64,000 nucleotides of DNA, taken from Escherichia coli (GTDB lineage: Bacteria > Pseudomonadota > Gammaproteobacteria > Enterobacterales > Enterobacteriaceae). This document shows positions 5,949 to 28,431 of this stretch, one piece after another; within the stretch, counting starts at the first letter, position 1, and every line of letters begins with the position of its first letter. Location of the stretch: assembly GCF_009931435.1 (NCBI RefSeq), contig NZ_CP043414.1; one strand, 5' to 3'. Below the pieces are notes generated by a model. That model ran no database searches. It saw only the letters and a list, made by a program, of their open reading frames with translations, and was not told the origin of the DNA. A program made the translations under genes and the position numbers.

Positions 5949-7424
5949 GTGATGTCCCGAATGGCAGAACAGCAGCTTTATATACATGGTGGTTATACCT
6001 CCGCCACCAGCGGTCGCACCTTCGAGACCATTAACCCGGCCAACGGTAACGTGCTGGCGACCGTGCAGGCCGCCGGGCGTGAGGATGTCGATCGCGCCGT
6101 GAAGAGCGCCCAGCAGGGGCAAAAAATCTGGGCGGCGATGACCGCCATGGAACGCTCGCGCATTCTGCGTCGGGCCGTTGATATTCTGCGCGAACGCAAT
6201 GACGAACTCGCTAAACTGGAAACCCTCGACACCGGGAAGGCGTATTCAGAAACCTCAACCGTCGATATCGTTACCGGCGCGGACGTACTGGAGTACTACG
6301 CCGGGCTGATCCCGGCGCTGGAAGGCAGCCAGATCCCGCTACGCGAGACGTCGTTTGTTTATACCCGCAGTGAACCGCTGGGCGTGGTCGCCGGAATTGG
6401 CGCATGGAACTACCCGATTCAGATTGCTTTGTGGAAATCCGCTCCGGCACTGGCCGCAGGCAACGCGATGATATTCAAACCGAGCGAAGTTACCCCGCTT
6501 ACCGCGTTAAAGCTGGCTGAAATCTACAGCGAAGCGGGCCTGCCGGACGGCGTATTTAACGTGTTGCCGGGCGTAGGTGCGGAAACCGGGCAGTATCTGA
6601 CCGAGCATCCGGGCATCGCCAAAGTGTCGTTTACCGGCGGCGTCGCCAGCGGCAAAAAGGTGATGGCTAACGCGGCGGCCTCTTCCCTGAAAGAGGTGAC
6701 CATGGAGCTGGGCGGTAAATCGCCGCTGATCGTTTTCGACGATGCAGACCTCGATCTCGCCGCCGATATCGCCATGATGGCGAACTTCTTTAGCTCCGGT
6801 CAGGTGTGTACCAATGGCACCCGCGTCTTCGTTCCGGCGAAATGCAAAGCCGCGTTTGAGCAGAAAATACTGGCGCGCGTTGAACGCATTCGCGCGGGCG
6901 ACGTTTTCGATCCGCAAACCAACTTTGGCCCGCTGGTCAGCTTCCCGCATCGCGATAACGTGCTGCGCTATATCGCCAAAGGTAAAGAGGAAGGCGCACG
7001 CGTGCTCTGCGGCGGCGATGTGCTGAAGGGTGATGGCTTCGATAACGGCGCATGGGTTGCACCGACCGTGTTCACCGATTGCCGCGACGAAATGACTATC
7101 GTGCGCGAAGAGATCTTCGGCCCGGTGATGTCGCTCCTCACGTATGAGTCTGAAGACGAAGTGATTCGCCGCGCCAATGATACCGACTACGGTCTGGCGG
7201 CGGGTATCGTCACGGCGGATCTGAACCGCGCGCATCGCGTCATTCATCAGCTGGAAGCCGGCATTTGCTGGATCAACACCTGGGGAGAATCCCCGGCGGA
7301 GATGCCCGTTGGCGGTTACAAACACTCCGGCATTGGCCGCGAGAACGGCGTGATGACGCTCCAGAGTTATACCCAGGTGAAGTCCATCCAGGTTGAGATG
7401 GCTAAATTCCAGTCCATATTCTAA
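5949..7424 (+). CDS. betB: betaine aldehyde dehydrogenase BetB
   Basis: 491-aa aldehyde dehydrogenase ORF immediately after betI. Confidence 0.96.
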
Positions 7425-7437
7425 CCAGGAGGTTTAT

Positions 7438-9126
7438 TTGCAATTTGACTACATCATTATTGGCGCCGGCTCTGCCGGCAACGTCCTCGCGACACGTCTG
7501 ACTGAAGATCCGAACACTACCGTGCTGCTGCTTGAAGCGGGCGGCCCGGACTATCGCTTTGACTTCCGTACCCAAATGCCCGCTGCGCTGGCGTTCCCGC
7601 TACAGGGTAAACGCTATAACTGGGCGTATGAGACCGAGCCGGAACCGTTTATGAACAACCGTCGCATGGAGTGCGGACGCGGTAAGGGGCTTGGTGGATC
7701 ATCACTGATCAACGGCATGTGTTACATCCGTGGTAACGCGCTGGATCTCGATAACTGGGCGAAAGAACCCGGTCTGGAGAACTGGAGCTACCTCGACTGT
7801 CTGCCCTACTATCGCAAGGCCGAGACTCGCGATGTGGGCGAGAACGACTACCACGGCGGTGATGGCCCGGTGAGCGTCACCACCTCCAAACCCGGCGTCA
7901 ATCCGCTGTTTGAAGCGATGATTGAAGCGGGCGTGCAGGCGGGCTACCCGCGCACGGACGATCTCAACGGCTATCAGCAGGAAGGTTTTGGCCCGATGGA
8001 TCGCACCGTCACGCCGCAGGGCCGTCGCGCCAGTACCGCGCGCGGTTATCTCGATCAGGCCAAATCGCGCCCTAACCTGACGATTCGTACTCACGCTATG
8101 ACCGATCACATCATTTTTGACGGCAAACGCGCGGTGGGCGTCGAGTGGCTGGAAGGCGACAGCACCATTCCGACCCGCTCGGCGGCGAATAAAGAAGTGC
8201 TGTTATGTGCAGGCGCGATTGCTTCACCGCAGATCCTGCAACGCTCCGGCGTCGGCAACGCTGGACTGCTGGCGGAGTTTGATATTCCGCTGGTGCATGA
8301 ATTACCTGGCGTCGGCGAAAATCTTCAGGATCACCTGGAGATGTATCTGCAATATGAGTGCAAAGAACCGGTTTCCCTCTACCCTGCCCTGCAGTGGTGG
8401 AATCAGCCGAAAATCGGTGCGGAGTGGCTGTTTGGCGGCACCGGCGTGGGTGCCAGCAACCACTTTGAAGCAGGTGGATTTATCCGCAGCCGTGAGGAAT
8501 TTGCGTGGCCGAACATTCAATACCACTTCCTGCCGGTAGCGATTAACTACAACGGCTCGAATGCGGTGAAAGAGCACGGTTTCCAGTGCCACGTTGGCTC
8601 AATGCGCTCGCCAAGCCGTGGGCATGTGCGGATTAAATCCCGCGACCCGCACCAGCATCCGGCGATTTTGTTTAACTACATGTCGCACGAACAGGACTGG
8701 CAGGAGTTCCGCGACGCGATTCGCATCACCCGCGAGATCATGCATCAACCGGCGCTGGATCAATACCGTGGCCGCGAAATCAGCCCCGGCGCGGAATGCC
8801 AGACAGATGAGCAGCTCGATGAGTTTGTGCGTAATCACGCCGAAACCGCCTTCCACCCATGCGGTACGTGCAAAATGGGGTACGACGAGATGTCCGTTGT
8901 GGATGGCGAAGGCCGCGTGCACGGGCTGGAAGGATTACGCGTAGTCGATGCGTCAATTATGCCGCAGATCATCACCGGCAATCTGAACGCCACGACCATT
9001 ATGATTGGCGAGAAAATGGCGGATATGATTCGCGGACGAGAAGCGTTGCCCAGAAGTCTGGCGGCGTATTTTGTGGCGAATGGGATGCCAGTAAGAGCGA
9101 AAAAACTGAATCGCGATTTGAACTAA
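7438..9126 (+). CDS. betA: choline dehydrogenase BetA (GMC oxidoreductase)
   Basis: FAD-binding motif [11 protein letters not shown] at the N-terminus; likely TTG start at 7438 preceded by AGGAGG and just after the betB stop. The track extends the ORF to 7393, overlapping betB. Confidence 0.93.
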
Positions 9127-23134: not shown

Positions 23135-23684
23135 TGAGATAATTTCCTGATGAACGAATTAACGAACATAGGCAGACACAAATAATGGTGTCTGCTTGTC
23201 AGAAAAACCGGGGATTTCCCGGTTTCCTTTTCCGCAGAAAAGGAAATACCTTTATGTAAGAAAGTACACCGCCACCTAATATATCCAGTGCCTGTAGCCA
23301 CTCATCAGGTGGTTGGGCGCGGGATTATATTTTTATTTATGGGTGAGAATTTAGCTTTTTGTGCAAACCATTAAATAGATACCTAAGTTATATTTCTTAC
23401 TCTGCGGACAGTGAATAATTCATTATTCAGAGTGAATAATAATGACCTACCTTTAATTAGCAACTATCGGAAATACGTCGAAGTAGGTATATACGCCAGG
23501 ATAAACCGATATATTTTTTATGGATATTCATTTTCCTTCATCAGACTGTGAATTGCAGGGATATCGAACTTGCACGACTCATCGCAACACTCAAACAGAT
23601 TTATGAATTTCGTTCATAACCCCTGACAAATCCTGCCGTCTAATCGCGTGACTCCCTTTACGTTATGCTTCTCATGAACGATAA

Positions 23685-24275
<591 letters not shown>

Positions 24276-24467
24276 GCGATTATGCATCTACCTATTTACG
24301 TCGGTCACTCAGTCAGAGTCTTGCCCATATTCAATGAGGTTCAACACCGCAGCCAATGAAAAGTAGGCCATGCGGGGATTAATAGCATTACTCATTAATC
24401 AATCGCTCTTTTCATTTACGTGCTCTTTATGTAACATATTGCTTTTATTGATCTTCCTGGAGTTTGC

Positions 24468-24824
24468 ATGAATAAGAATCTCATCCTCGCATTTGCATTA
24501 TTTTCCTTACCTGTATTTGCAGAAGAAGATCTGGGGCCAGGCAAATATGTTTGTGACATTAGGATTTCCAGCCTGGATACCGCTACTCAAATTCTGTCAA
24601 AATCCGCAACAGTTCTCGATAATGGAAACAATTTCATCGTTCAAATGCCAAATGGAGATCAATTGTACTCTCCAGATCTGGAAAATGTTGATGATGGTAT
24701 AAAACAAAAAGCAACAATAGGTGGAGTGACATTTATTCGTCGTCCAACTTTTAACGATCGCTTCATCGTGGAAGATGGAAATACAGGATTCTTCTATAAG
24801 ATGCGAAACTGCGAGAAGAAATAA
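24468..24824 (+). CDS. hypothetical secreted protein (118 aa, two Cys)
   Basis: N-terminal signal peptide MNKNLILAFALFSLPVFA; no family recognised. Confidence 0.55.
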   Translation: MNKNLILAFALFSLPVFAEEDLGPGKYVCDIRISSLDTATQILSKSATVLDNGNNFIVQMPNGDQLYSPDLENVDDGIKQKATIGGVTFIRRPTFNDRFIVEDGNTGFFYKMRNCEKK

Positions 24825-25112
24825 AGGAAGTTTGATAGCGATATCCTCCTGATTTTCAGGCTTTGTACCTGTTCAAGACTTACAACTACAAGCCGCTACG
24901 TGTTAACGCCTCCCAAAATAACCACCGTTAACCGTAGCGGTCATAGATACTATTATTTTAGCCACATTACTGGTGATAATGATAATTGATATTATGGCCG
25001 TATAGAAAATAAGCATTAATTATCAGAAAGTTTATTATGTAAACGCGTCCTAATGATTACGTTATTCCTCTTACCGATATTCGCCCAGAGCAACCATCAA
25101 TTACACATATCA

Positions 25113-26039
25113 TCAATTTTCGAGTTTTACTCTTTTCTCCACCATAAAATCAATAAAAGCACGAACTTTAGAGGGCATTCTCACCCGTGATGAAACATAA
25201 ATATAAAATCCAGGAAATGAAACAGCCCAATCCTCAAGAATCGGCTGTAACTTGCCCGCATTGATATGTTCAGCGATTGCAAAATCCAGATGTTGAATGA
25301 TACCCGTTCCATTCAGCGCCATTCGTATCATGCTTTCGTCATCATTAGAAATATACTTACCTGAAACCTCTATTTCGAACTCTTCATTACCCCCCACAAC
25401 ATTAGAAAACTCCCATGCAGAGAGTGCACCGCTACTTTTATGCCGCAACCGAAGGCAATTATGGTTACTCAGTTCCTGAGGCGTTTCAGGAATACCGTGT
25501 TCTTTTAAATAATCTGGCGATGCCACAGTAACCAGTTTAATAAGCGGAGAAACAGGAACGGCAGTCATATGCTCATCCAGTCCTTGCTCAAGACGTATGC
25601 CCACATCACAGCCGTCCGCAATAATGTTAGATAAACCGTCATCCATAATGAGTTCTATCTTTGTTTTGGGGTAACGAGTAAGAAACTCGCCAATATGAGG
25701 CTCAACAAGCATCCGTGCTGCAACACGGGAGGAATTTATTCTCAACAGGCCTGTAGGTTCAAGTTGGGTATCACCAACATCTTTCAAAGCATCATCAATT
25801 TGCCCCAAAGCCGACACCAGCACTTCATACAGACGCTGTCCTTCCTCAGTAAGCGACATATTGCGGGTCGTACGGTATATCAGCTTGGTGTTAAGACGTT
25901 CCTCAAGAGATTTTAAATTCTGGGACAATGCGGCCCGCGTAATACCCATTTCAGAAGCGGCTCTGGAAAAACTGCCGGCACGAACAATCAGCGCAAACCA
26001 GGCAAGAGAAGGCAAAATTGAAGGCTCTATTTTCATCAT
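25113..26039 (-). CDS. LysR-family transcriptional regulator
   Basis: LysR HTH (GSFSRAASEMGITRAALSQNLKSLEERL); probable start at MMKIEPS; divergent from the hydrolase gene. Confidence 0.85.
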   Translation of the reverse strand: MMKIEPSILPSLAWFALIVRAGSFSRAASEMGITRAALSQNLKSLEERLNTKLIYRTTRNMSLTEEGQRLYEVLVSALGQIDDALKDVGDTQLEPTGLLRINSSRVAARMLVEPHIGEFLTRYPKTKIELIMDDGLSNIIADGCDVGIRLEQGLDEHMTAVPVSPLIKLVTVASPDYLKEHGIPETPQELSNHNCLRLRHKSSGALSAWEFSNVVGGNEEFEIEVSGKYISNDDESMIRMALNGTGIIQHLDFAIAEHINAGKLQPILEDWAVSFPGFYIYVSSRVRMPSKVRAFIDFMVEKRVKLEN

Positions 26040-26195
26040 TGTAAACCTTAACTTAACACTGTGATAGATATTAGACCATTGATGATAACCAATACAAGTC
26101 ATACTATTACGCCGTTCTCGATATGAACACAAATGCCAGTTGCGGATAATAGAAATGATATTTAAATCTGTTTAGGCAAATCCCTGGAGCTTGAA

Positions 26196-27116
26196 ATGAA
26201 AACGGTTTCGATAAAACACACTTACTGGGATATAGCTGCTGATATCTATTTCCCTGACGATTTTAATAGTGAAAAAAAGTATCCTGCCATTATCAGTGCC
26301 CATCCAATTGGAAGCTGCAAAGAACAGACATCGGGTAGTGTGTATGGTGCCGCCCTGGCAAAAGCTGGCTTTATCGTCATTGCTTTTGATGCCAGTTTTC
26401 AGGGAAGCAGCGGTGGAGAACCGCGTTATCTGGAAGATCCAACAATGCGAGTAAAAGACTTCAGCATTGTCGTTGATTACCTTACCACCTTACCTTACGT
26501 TGATGCCGGGCGTATTGGTGTACTGGGTATTTGTGGTGGAGGTGGATATGCCATTAATGCCGCAATGACAGAACGTCGGATTAAAGCCATTGGTACTGTC
26601 ACGGGTGCTAACTACGGGCGTCTTATGCGTGAGGGATTTACAGCGTTTAATCCTATCGGAGCACTCGAAGCAATGGCGCAACAAAGAACAGACGAAGCTA
26701 ACGGCGCAAAACTTCGCGTAGATGATTTGCTCCCTTCTTCTCCGGAAGCAGCTCTTGAAGCGGGATTAACAGAAATAGACCTTTTTGAAGCAACAGAATA
26801 TTATCGTTCGCCACGAGGCTGTGCGCCTAATGGGGTAAATCGTTCGCTATTTTCACATCAGACTGTTGCCGTGGGCTGGGATGCTTTTCATCTTGCAGAA
26901 GTCCTGTTAACTCAACCACTAATGGTTGTAGTGGGCGATAGAGTGGGCGCTTTTGGTGCCTATCGTGACGGCTGCGAAATTATTGGTCGTGCAGCCTCAA
27001 AACATAAAGAGTTGGTCGTGGTTGAAGGTTATTCACATTACGACCTGTATGATAAGCCAGAACCTGTGAAACAGGCGCTCGATAAATTAATTCCTTTTTA
27101 CAAAACACATTTGTAA
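26196..27116 (+). CDS. alpha/beta-fold hydrolase, no signal peptide
   Basis: 306-aa ORF with nucleophile-elbow-like LGICGGGGYA; paralogous to the ORF at 45817..46953. Confidence 0.8.
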   Translation: MKTVSIKHTYWDIAADIYFPDDFNSEKKYPAIISAHPIGSCKEQTSGSVYGAALAKAGFIVIAFDASFQGSSGGEPRYLEDPTMRVKDFSIVVDYLTTLPYVDAGRIGVLGICGGGGYAINAAMTERRIKAIGTVTGANYGRLMREGFTAFNPIGALEAMAQQRTDEANGAKLRVDDLLPSSPEAALEAGLTEIDLFEATEYYRSPRGCAPNGVNRSLFSHQTVAVGWDAFHLAEVLLTQPLMVVVGDRVGAFGAYRDGCEIIGRAASKHKELVVVEGYSHYDLYDKPEPVKQALDKLIPFYKTHL

Positions 27117-27288
27117 TAACCTTGCAGGGAGATTCATTATCTCCCTGAGATTTATCCTTTATTGACTACACGACAATAATAAAATTACTCAAAAAGAATT
27201 CTATTAAAGGAAAAAAGCATCAAAAAGTAGCAACTCAACTTATTAAGATTATACGCATTAAAATCAGATAAACATTTGAGGTATTGTT

Positions 27289-28431
27289 ATGATAAATAAA
27301 CACCCATCATTGTTTTCTCCTTTTATGCTGACAGAAAAAATAAAGCTACGTAATCGTATCGTTATGGCCCCTATGACGACCTGGTCAGCTAATCCTGATG
27401 GAACCATCTCTGAGCAAGAACTCGAATTTTATAAACGTCGCTCACAAAATGTTGGTTTAGTAATAACAGGATGCACCTATGTCACGCCAAGCGGCATTGG
27501 GTTTACTCATGAATTTGCCGCATATGACGACCGTTTCATTAACAGCCTTGAAAAGTTAGCTGCTGCAGCCAAAAGTGGCGGTGCTCCGGCTATTTTGCAG
27601 ATTTTCCACGCCGGTAATAAAGCCATCCCGGAGCTTGTGCCAAATTACGATGTTATTAGTGCCAGCGCATCAAGCGTAAAATCTGGTGACTTTATGAAGA
27701 GAGTGGTACAAAGCAGGGAAATGACTGAAAACGAAATTCAGGAAACCATTAGAGCATTCGGAGATGTCACAAAAAGGGCGATTAAAGCAGGTTTTGATGG
27801 CGTTGAACTTCATGGTGCGCACGGATTCCTTCTGCAGAATTTCTTCTCCCCTCTATTTAACCAGCGTAATGACCGATGGGGAGGAGATCTTGAAGGACGT
27901 ATGCGCTTCCCGCTGGCCGTATTACAGGAAGTAAAAAATGTAGTCTATGAATATGCGAAAAAGCCCTTTGCCATCGGTTACAGAATATCTCCTGAAGAAT
28001 CTGTAACAGGGGGGCTGCGGATAGAGGATACTTATAAACTCCTTGATCGGCTCATTTCATCCGGTATTTCGTATATACATACCTCGCTGGTCAGTATTAA
28101 CGATAGCTACCCTGTTGAGTCGCCAAATGGCCCCCGAACTATTGAATTGATTTTAAATCATATTGCAGGCAGAGTGCCGGTAATCGCCGCAGGTAAAATA
28201 CGCACACCTTCTCAGGCTCAAGAAGCAATTTCCGCTGGCCTGCCACTTGTTGCGATCGGTAAAGGGCTGGTGATAAATCCAGAATGGGTGACTTTAGCTG
28301 AATCAGGTAGAAGTCATGAAATTCAAACAGCCCTTAATCCACAACGCGTTCCTGAATTAACCATTCCGGATAAACTATGGGATCAAATTCAGGCATCGAA
28401 AGGAACTGGCTGGTTTCCGTTAATGGATTAA
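27289..28431 (+). CDS. NADH:flavin oxidoreductase (Old Yellow Enzyme family)
   Basis: 380-aa ORF; N-terminal LRNRIVMAPMTT and HGAHGFLLQNFFSP motifs typical of OYE/NemA-like enzymes. Confidence 0.85.
   Translation: MINKHPSLFSPFMLTEKIKLRNRIVMAPMTTWSANPDGTISEQELEFYKRRSQNVGLVITGCTYVTPSGIGFTHEFAAYDDRFINSLEKLAAAAKSGGAPAILQIFHAGNKAIPELVPNYDVISASASSVKSGDFMKRVVQSREMTENEIQETIRAFGDVTKRAIKAGFDGVELHGAHGFLLQNFFSPLFNQRNDRWGGDLEGRMRFPLAVLQEVKNVVYEYAKKPFAIGYRISPEESVTGGLRIEDTYKLLDRLISSGISYIHTSLVSINDSYPVESPNGPRTIELILNHIAGRVPVIAAGKIRTPSQAQEAISAGLPLVAIGKGLVINPEWVTLAESGRSHEIQTALNPQRVPELTIPDKLWDQIQASKGTGWFPLMD

Follow-up and report, generated by a model that had tools for sequence, protein, structure and literature searches.

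Between fdeC and ykgR of some Escherichia coli chromosomes, a small gene for a seemingly secreted protein stands just where an aldo/keto reductase (AKR) gene breaks off, which raises the question of what this protein is, how its gene came to lie there and what it might do. We studied the gene in a stretch of 64,000 nucleotides from E. coli contig NZ_CP043414.1 (assembly GCF_009931435.1), hereafter the window, in which its open reading frame (ORF) starts with ATG, covers 24468..24824 of the plus strand and encodes 118 amino acids. A Shine-Dalgarno sequence, GGAG, lies at 24459-24462, 5 nt 5′ of the start codon. The product is already annotated as a hypothetical protein (RefSeq WP_001038968.1; tag ECs_0334 in O157:H7 Sakai), and no member of its protein cluster carries a name; what is new here are a fold class, a compartment, a mobile-element origin and the exact replacement event at the locus. 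We are highly confident that this is a functional coding gene whose product bears a Sec/signal peptidase I (SPase I) signal peptide and matures to an acidic, all-beta barrel of about 11 kDa with two invariant cysteines. Very probably, too, the gene belongs to the single-gene cargo, or morons, of phages and integrative elements, with the E. coli copy residing on a 680-bp relic that replaced 2.28 kb.

The N-terminus, MNKNLILAFALFSLPVFA↓EEDLGPG, has the features of an exported protein. Its layout, MNK-NLILAFALFSLP-VFA↓EE, combines a basic n-region, a hydrophobic core with a mean Kyte-Doolittle value of 2.8 over 10 residues and a c-region of the A-x-A type (V-F-A), and with small residues at positions −3 and −1 it is predicted to be a Sec/SPase I signal. 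The n-h-c layout was kept in 16 of 16 aligned family members despite diverging h-region sequence. A lipobox for SPase II (L-[AS]-[GA]-C) was looked for and not found in the window protein, whose first cysteine is residue 29, and the CSA↓AED variants of the family do not match this motif either. Predicted cleavage after VFA removes 18 codons (24468..24521, plus strand), and the remainder (24522..24824, stop codon included) encodes a predicted mature protein of 100 amino acids and 11.2 kDa with an isoelectric point of 4.8. It has just two cysteines, C29 (24552-24554) and C115 (24810-24812), and both are invariant in the family. An initial annotation of the window had already described a secreted protein with a clear signal peptide and two cysteines near the ends of its mature part, and both features stand in the family comparison.

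Relatives of the protein are few. Searching 5.8 billion clusters by word index yielded 17, HMMER run exhaustively against 1.84 billion representatives yielded 9, and a profile search recovered about 24 clusters at 90% identity among 5.8 billion proteins; of 100,044 species-representative genomes, 4 carry the gene. Two long proteins also came up in the HMMER search, P0021 with its repeated 'FGPGTYTVDLQITDCDG' unit and P0023, but we discarded both, since their repeats match 'GPGKYVCDIRISSLD' spuriously. Proteins 76-83% identical, which we take as orthologues, are encoded by Siccibacter colletis, Enterobacter asburiae, Klebsiella pneumoniae, Cronobacter sakazakii and a metagenome-assembled genome of Citrobacter freundii. 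More distant relatives were found at 47-57% identity in Pantoea agglomerans, an Erwinia sp. and one prophage, and at 25-36% in uncultured phage contigs. Scans of the query and family members against Pfam and NCBIfam gave no family match, PHROGs returned only families without named function (best E 0.017), PADLOC gave no match at E ≤ 1 for the query or the homologues P0025 and P0028, and the family profile hit PDB sequences by chance only (E ≥ 0.57). The protein thus has no recognisable family, as first described; the label orphan is right in that no curated family includes it and goes too far in the strict sense, since a very small family in Enterobacterales and phages exists.

Between the E. 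coli, Siccibacter, Enterobacter and Klebsiella copies, the ratio of nonsynonymous to synonymous substitution (dN/dS, Nei-Gojobori) is 0.05-0.16 at dS values of 0.3-2.0, and the family is therefore under strong purifying selection. The ORF is hence conserved in other genera and shows a coding-like substitution pattern, the two points on which its first description could have failed. C29, D30, D51, V58 and C115 are invariant in the widest alignment, R92-P93, R98 and E102 nearly so. Most of the residues conserved in the family are charged or polar (D30, R32, D51, R92, R98, E102), which suits a protein-binding surface.

Structure prediction, proposed together with the first description, produced a confident barrel-like model. 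From an alignment of 13 sequences, AlphaFold2 modelled nine beta-strands and no real helix, with a mean predicted local distance difference test score (pLDDT) of 88 and a predicted template-modelling (TM) score of 0.76. The pLDDT was low for residues 1-20 (51-57), which include the signal peptide, and exceeded 93 in the mature part. A separate run centred on the phage homologue P0028, which is 26% identical, gave the same strand pattern with pLDDT values of 85-94 for the mature part. A small soluble beta-barrel of eight to nine antiparallel strands is thus well supported by the models as the fold class. In the predicted structure C29 lies in the first and C115 in the last strand, and a disulfide between them that closes the barrel in the oxidising periplasm is therefore likely.

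The fold matches are to generic small barrels and do not support assignment to a specific superfamily. Foldseek found no PDB match at E ≤ 0.001, with TM-scores of at most 0.44. The best fold matches came from BFVD: nine phage proteins at E ≤ 0.001, none with an assigned function, with E values of 1e-6 to 1e-3. Their query-normalised TM-scores are 0.52-0.69, and the top eight reach about 0.6-0.7. One of these, A0A6G5YBQ0 (116 amino acids, 29% identity), probably is a true family member. The others, at 17-22% identity, include 'lipoproteins' of the Erwinia jumbo phages Huxley and Kwan and proteins of phage SEGD1 and PNJ1809-36. They resemble the 118-residue protein in size and in being encoded by phages, although several of them are lipoproteins.

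The surroundings of the homologues point to mobile elements as the source of the gene. In a prophage on a 1.34-Mb metagenomic contig (L012, 5211-8083), the homologue P0025 is on the plus strand between terS and terL, both on the minus strand, with a lysis cassette nearby. The genes terS and terL normally are adjacent, and the gap between them is an unusual insertion place for a moron. The Siccibacter homologue (L004) has as neighbours a gene of phrog_27295 and a satellite of the P4-like kind, with Ogr/Delta and primase genes. In Enterobacter, it is the outermost called gene of an integrase/pRha/DUF4145 island, at the end distal to the integrase, and the island-end position recurs in Klebsiella. 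The Erwinia homologue is next to an insertion sequence (IS) and HEPN/dynamin-like genes. Phage contigs that reach 147 kb and weakly resemble Vequintavirinae in their DNA carry the homologue as the second in a series of small rightward genes, which opens at a divergent junction; an IMG/VR scan matched a single locus. Placement between modules, an orientation opposite to the neighbours, upstream DNA that moves along with the gene and atypical base composition are marks of a moron or cargo gene. From these phage, satellite and island contexts, we take the gene to be cargo that phages and integrative elements carry as a unit by itself, with the E. coli copy very probably a relic of one. As an observation on the Siccibacter locus itself, the gene between homologue and satellite (6525-7958) encodes a 477-residue DUF8370 protein (phrog_27295, E = 5e-185), possibly cargo of a satellite hotspot; on the satellite itself are Ogr/Delta, primase/DUF927 and DUF5375.

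How the gene arrived in E. coli can be read from the alleles of the fdeC-ykgR interval, of which there are at least three structural types (window 23700-28431 compared with the alleles L003 and L018). The fullest allele, L018, carries two AKR genes (AKR1, AKR2), a second LysR gene (LysR′), a LysR gene interrupted by IS5, a hydrolase gene and an OYE gene. In a common allele, L003, LysR and the hydrolase gene are missing, and OYE has an internal deletion. From fdeC (eaeH) to ykgR, the window carries the AKR pseudogene, the 118-codon ORF and genes for LysR, an alpha/beta hydrolase and a flavin oxidoreductase of the OYE type, in this order. Collinearity of the window allele with L018 holds up to 24261 and resumes at 24942; in between, a foreign segment of 680 bp (24262..24941) takes the place of 2,283 bp of L018 that comprise the 3′ end of AKR1, AKR2 and LysR′. 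The guanine+cytosine (GC) content is 0.40 in the segment and 0.38 in the gene, compared with 0.50 in the window. Direct repeats or target duplications were sought at both junctions, and nothing was found there beyond a microhomology of 4-5 nt, GCGG(T). The likely indel breakpoint between AKR remnant and LysR module given in the initial annotation is thereby refined to the replacement of 2,283 bp by a mobile-element fragment. The truncated AKR pseudogene itself (23700..24275, plus strand; 'incomplete; missing C-terminus' in RefSeq) is homologous to the intact allele as far as 24261, and its final 14 nt, including the TAA stop codon at 24273-24275, are supplied by the inserted segment.

The distribution of the segment across E. 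coli, also named at the outset as a point to check, is narrow. It occurs in 315 of 5,426 complete genomes, always at one chromosomal locus, at 99% identity or more and never on a plasmid, a pattern that points to a single acquisition. In about 3,200 of the 5,426 genomes, there is no match at all to a 951-bp query. The listed carriers mainly are O157:H7 and O55:H7, and the best match, strain 2020CK-00188, is without serotype label. An origin of the segment in the ancestor of Escherichia, with loss elsewhere, is unlikely in view of this narrow distribution and of the low GC content.

Both flanks of the gene within the segment are informative about the donor. Homology to the Siccibacter locus spans 24284-24822, so that 184 bp of upstream DNA (24284..24467, plus strand; 75% identical to Siccibacter) travel with the gene. 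Besides the ribosome-binding site, this upstream region holds a −10-like element, TAACAT, at 24432-24437 (TAAAAT in orthologues) and a weak −35-like element, TTTCAT, at 24410-24415 that is degraded relative to the orthologues. We infer a promoter here from these short motifs; a consensus scan reported no promoter 5′ of the gene and no intrinsic terminator. On the other side, the downstream sequence 24855..24941 (plus strand) is homologous to the island-side DNA directly beside the tRNA-Thr(CGT) gene, thrW, in 25 other E. coli genomes (82% identity) and in Klebsiella. It is not present beside the Siccibacter gene. The Klebsiella homologue is separated from this sequence by about 1.1 kb and from the tRNA gene by about 1.3 kb. 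The last part of this stretch can form a hairpin (24892-24941; 16-bp stem GCCGCTACG-TGTTAACG ... CGTTAAC-CGTAGCGGT, 17-nt loop, fold z = −4.2) that stops exactly at the right junction and is kept beside thrW where islands end in Klebsiella and other E. coli strains. Its possible roles are those of a recombination site, an attachment (att)-related site or a terminator that lacks a T-tract. A search of 23500-26500 with Rfam at E ≤ 1 revealed no known RNA element in the flanks.

In a Sakai microarray study, expression of ECs0334 dropped (log2 −2.07) on entry into stationary phase (PMC2241611), and therefore its transcript was detected in growing cells. This microarray table is all that we found in the literature on ECs0334 and its neighbours. 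Frameshifted or truncated versions of the protein (P0016, P0017, P0019, P0012) occur in E. coli read-set assemblies, where they read into the +1 frame (ORF 24493..24702); they could be occasional pseudogenisation or assembly errors.

These observations may be joined in a single explanation. The 680-bp relic very probably joins the gene and the DNA 5′ of it to the end of a thrW-type island, and it replaced 2.28 kb between fdeC and ykgR in an ancestor of the O157:H7/O55:H7 lineage. The exported barrel might then act by stoichiometric binding or inhibition of a target in the cell envelope; candidates are a phage receptor or injection channel, at its periplasmic face, and an incoming hydrolase that attacks peptidoglycan. 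Superinfection exclusion or protection of the envelope would result, to the benefit of the phage or element from inside the envelope. We favour such a role over other modes of action because one and the same stand-alone protein, predicted to be exported, is encoded by temperate elements, by satellites and, within an early-like cluster, by lytic-type phages. Binding to a periplasmic target with these outcomes is a possible function that we regard with some doubt. The explanation as a whole, from exported barrel to relic moron to envelope-acting binder or inhibitor, is tentative; we judge it somewhat more likely to fail than to hold. A narrower version, in which the proteins form an undescribed family of periplasmic mini-barrels borne by phages, satellites and islands that block phage entry, either at DNA ejection across the periplasm or at a tail-associated hydrolase, is unlikely. 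If it were true, the copy fixed in O157:H7/O55:H7 would add to the phage-resistance profile of this lineage.

The closest known kind is the phage moron that encodes an envelope protein, a comparison by analogy and not a sequence match. Prophage morons of this kind include bor and lom of lambda, cor of phi80 and N15, which encodes a lipoprotein, and prophage sodC. Like them, the gene studied here is a lone addition between phage modules that brings its upstream DNA along and deviates in GC content, its product is predicted to be exported, and it is scattered sporadically among related elements. We found no relationship to them in sequence or fold, however, and the product is predicted to be soluble after SPase I cleavage, in contrast to a lipoprotein or an outer-membrane barrel; moreover, no prophage surrounds the E. 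coli copy. Lytic phages also encode superinfection-exclusion proteins of the envelope, such as Sp (Spackle) and Imm of T4 and the lipoprotein Llp of T5. These likewise are small, exported to the envelope and encoded in early-type small-gene clusters of large lytic-type phages, while the family described here also resides on temperate elements. To Sp, Imm, Llp and Cor the family has no homology detectable by sequence or fold, and our literature search on periplasmic exclusion morons found nothing related.

Several observations speak against a cargo gene with an envelope function. No homologue has been characterised, and no known superinfection-exclusion or defence family was matched in PADLOC, PHROGs or the PDB. 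A tblastn search of 50,697 deposited phage genomes found no homologue for the query or P0028. The Pantoea homologue is surrounded by regulatory and transport genes of an ordinary kind, without visible sign of a mobile element, and in E. coli every neighbour of such origin is gone. Variation among the 315 genomes is below 1%, too little to reveal selection within E. coli, and frameshifted alleles (P0016, P0017, P0019) are present in some assemblies.

Part of this evidence would fit a functionally neutral E. coli copy, carried as a passenger of the recombination scar without benefit to the host and intact only since the O157:H7/O55:H7 lineage is young. Just 680 bp of the donor element are left, all 315 copies are so similar that there was little time for decay, frameshift alleles exist, the −35 element is degraded and the promoter scan was empty. 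In the opposite direction, the ORF, the Shine-Dalgarno sequence and the signal peptide are intact and RefSeq calls a normal coding sequence in every listed genome. The transcript is detected and regulated with growth phase in Sakai (PMC2241611), and strong purifying selection acts on the family at large. We regard neutrality of the E. coli copy as unlikely, though as a serious competitor of an envelope role.

The cysteine layout invites comparison with the MliC/PliC inhibitors (PF09864; PDB 2f09, 3f6z, 4mir, 3oe3; Brucella PhiA, 7dpy). These proteins are exported eight-stranded antiparallel barrels of about 90-100 mature residues, with cysteines placed in a Y-x-C-D first strand and an N-C last strand, a plan that our protein may share to judge by its model and its cysteine positions. 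On such a scaffold, the protein could inhibit lysozyme or another peptidoglycan hydrolase in the periplasm and shield the sacculus from the lysozyme of a host, an effector of a competitor or the tail lysozyme of a phage, a mechanism that overlaps with the binding role proposed above. Fold matches to PhiA and ACP and the shared 'Y-x-C-D ... N-C' layout are in line with this idea. However, neither the query nor 13 members matched PF09864 in Pfam at E ≤ 10, and the PDB profile search was without any MliC/PliC chain. The motifs S-x-S-G-A-x-Y and Y/W-x-T/S-K-G, visible in the MliC, PliC and PDB sequences, are absent from the family alignments. An hhalign comparison of the family with the MliC profile aligned 30 N-terminal columns at 52%, covering only the signal peptide and Y-x-C-D. 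MliC, furthermore, is a lipoprotein, whereas our protein has no lipobox. Since hidden Markov model, signature motifs and hhalign do not support membership in MliC/PliC, this candidate family was rejected, and an inhibitor on a scaffold of this type is improbable.

Quite improbable, too, is a periplasmic barrel of calycin, nitrobindin or YceI type that sequesters a lipid, isoprenoid, haem or other hydrophobic molecule. A small barrel would be compatible with it, but all scores are within the range for shared barrel topology alone, there is no sequence-family link, the mostly charged and polar conserved residues suit a binding surface over a hydrophobic pocket, and the phage and moron distribution would be left unexplained. 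That the ORF is no gene but a chance product of AT-rich junction DNA, as its position at a breakpoint and its want of a family annotation could suggest, has a practically negligible probability given the dN/dS values with synonymous sites saturated between genera, full-length homologues down to 25% identity that keep cysteines and signal peptide, and the confident fold.

In its practical result, the work is modest: a hypothetical protein gains a fold class, a compartment, an origin and a defined 680-bp acquisition. The gene is an ordinary horizontally acquired accessory gene, and its locus illustrates a recombination scar that left one intact cargo gene. Should the envelope role hold, however, it would be a compact single-gene factor for periplasmic phage exclusion or envelope protection that marks O157:H7/O55:H7 and is common to temperate elements, satellites and lytic-type phages of Enterobacterales. 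It would then bear on phage therapy and typing of enterohaemorrhagic E. coli and on the catalogue of envelope-level defences.

A last observation concerns the LysR gene downstream of the segment, on the minus strand (25113-26132). Its longest ORF comprises 339 codons from a TTG start, and RefSeq calls a protein of 308 amino acids (25113-26039); the extra 31 N-terminal codons probably are not translated.
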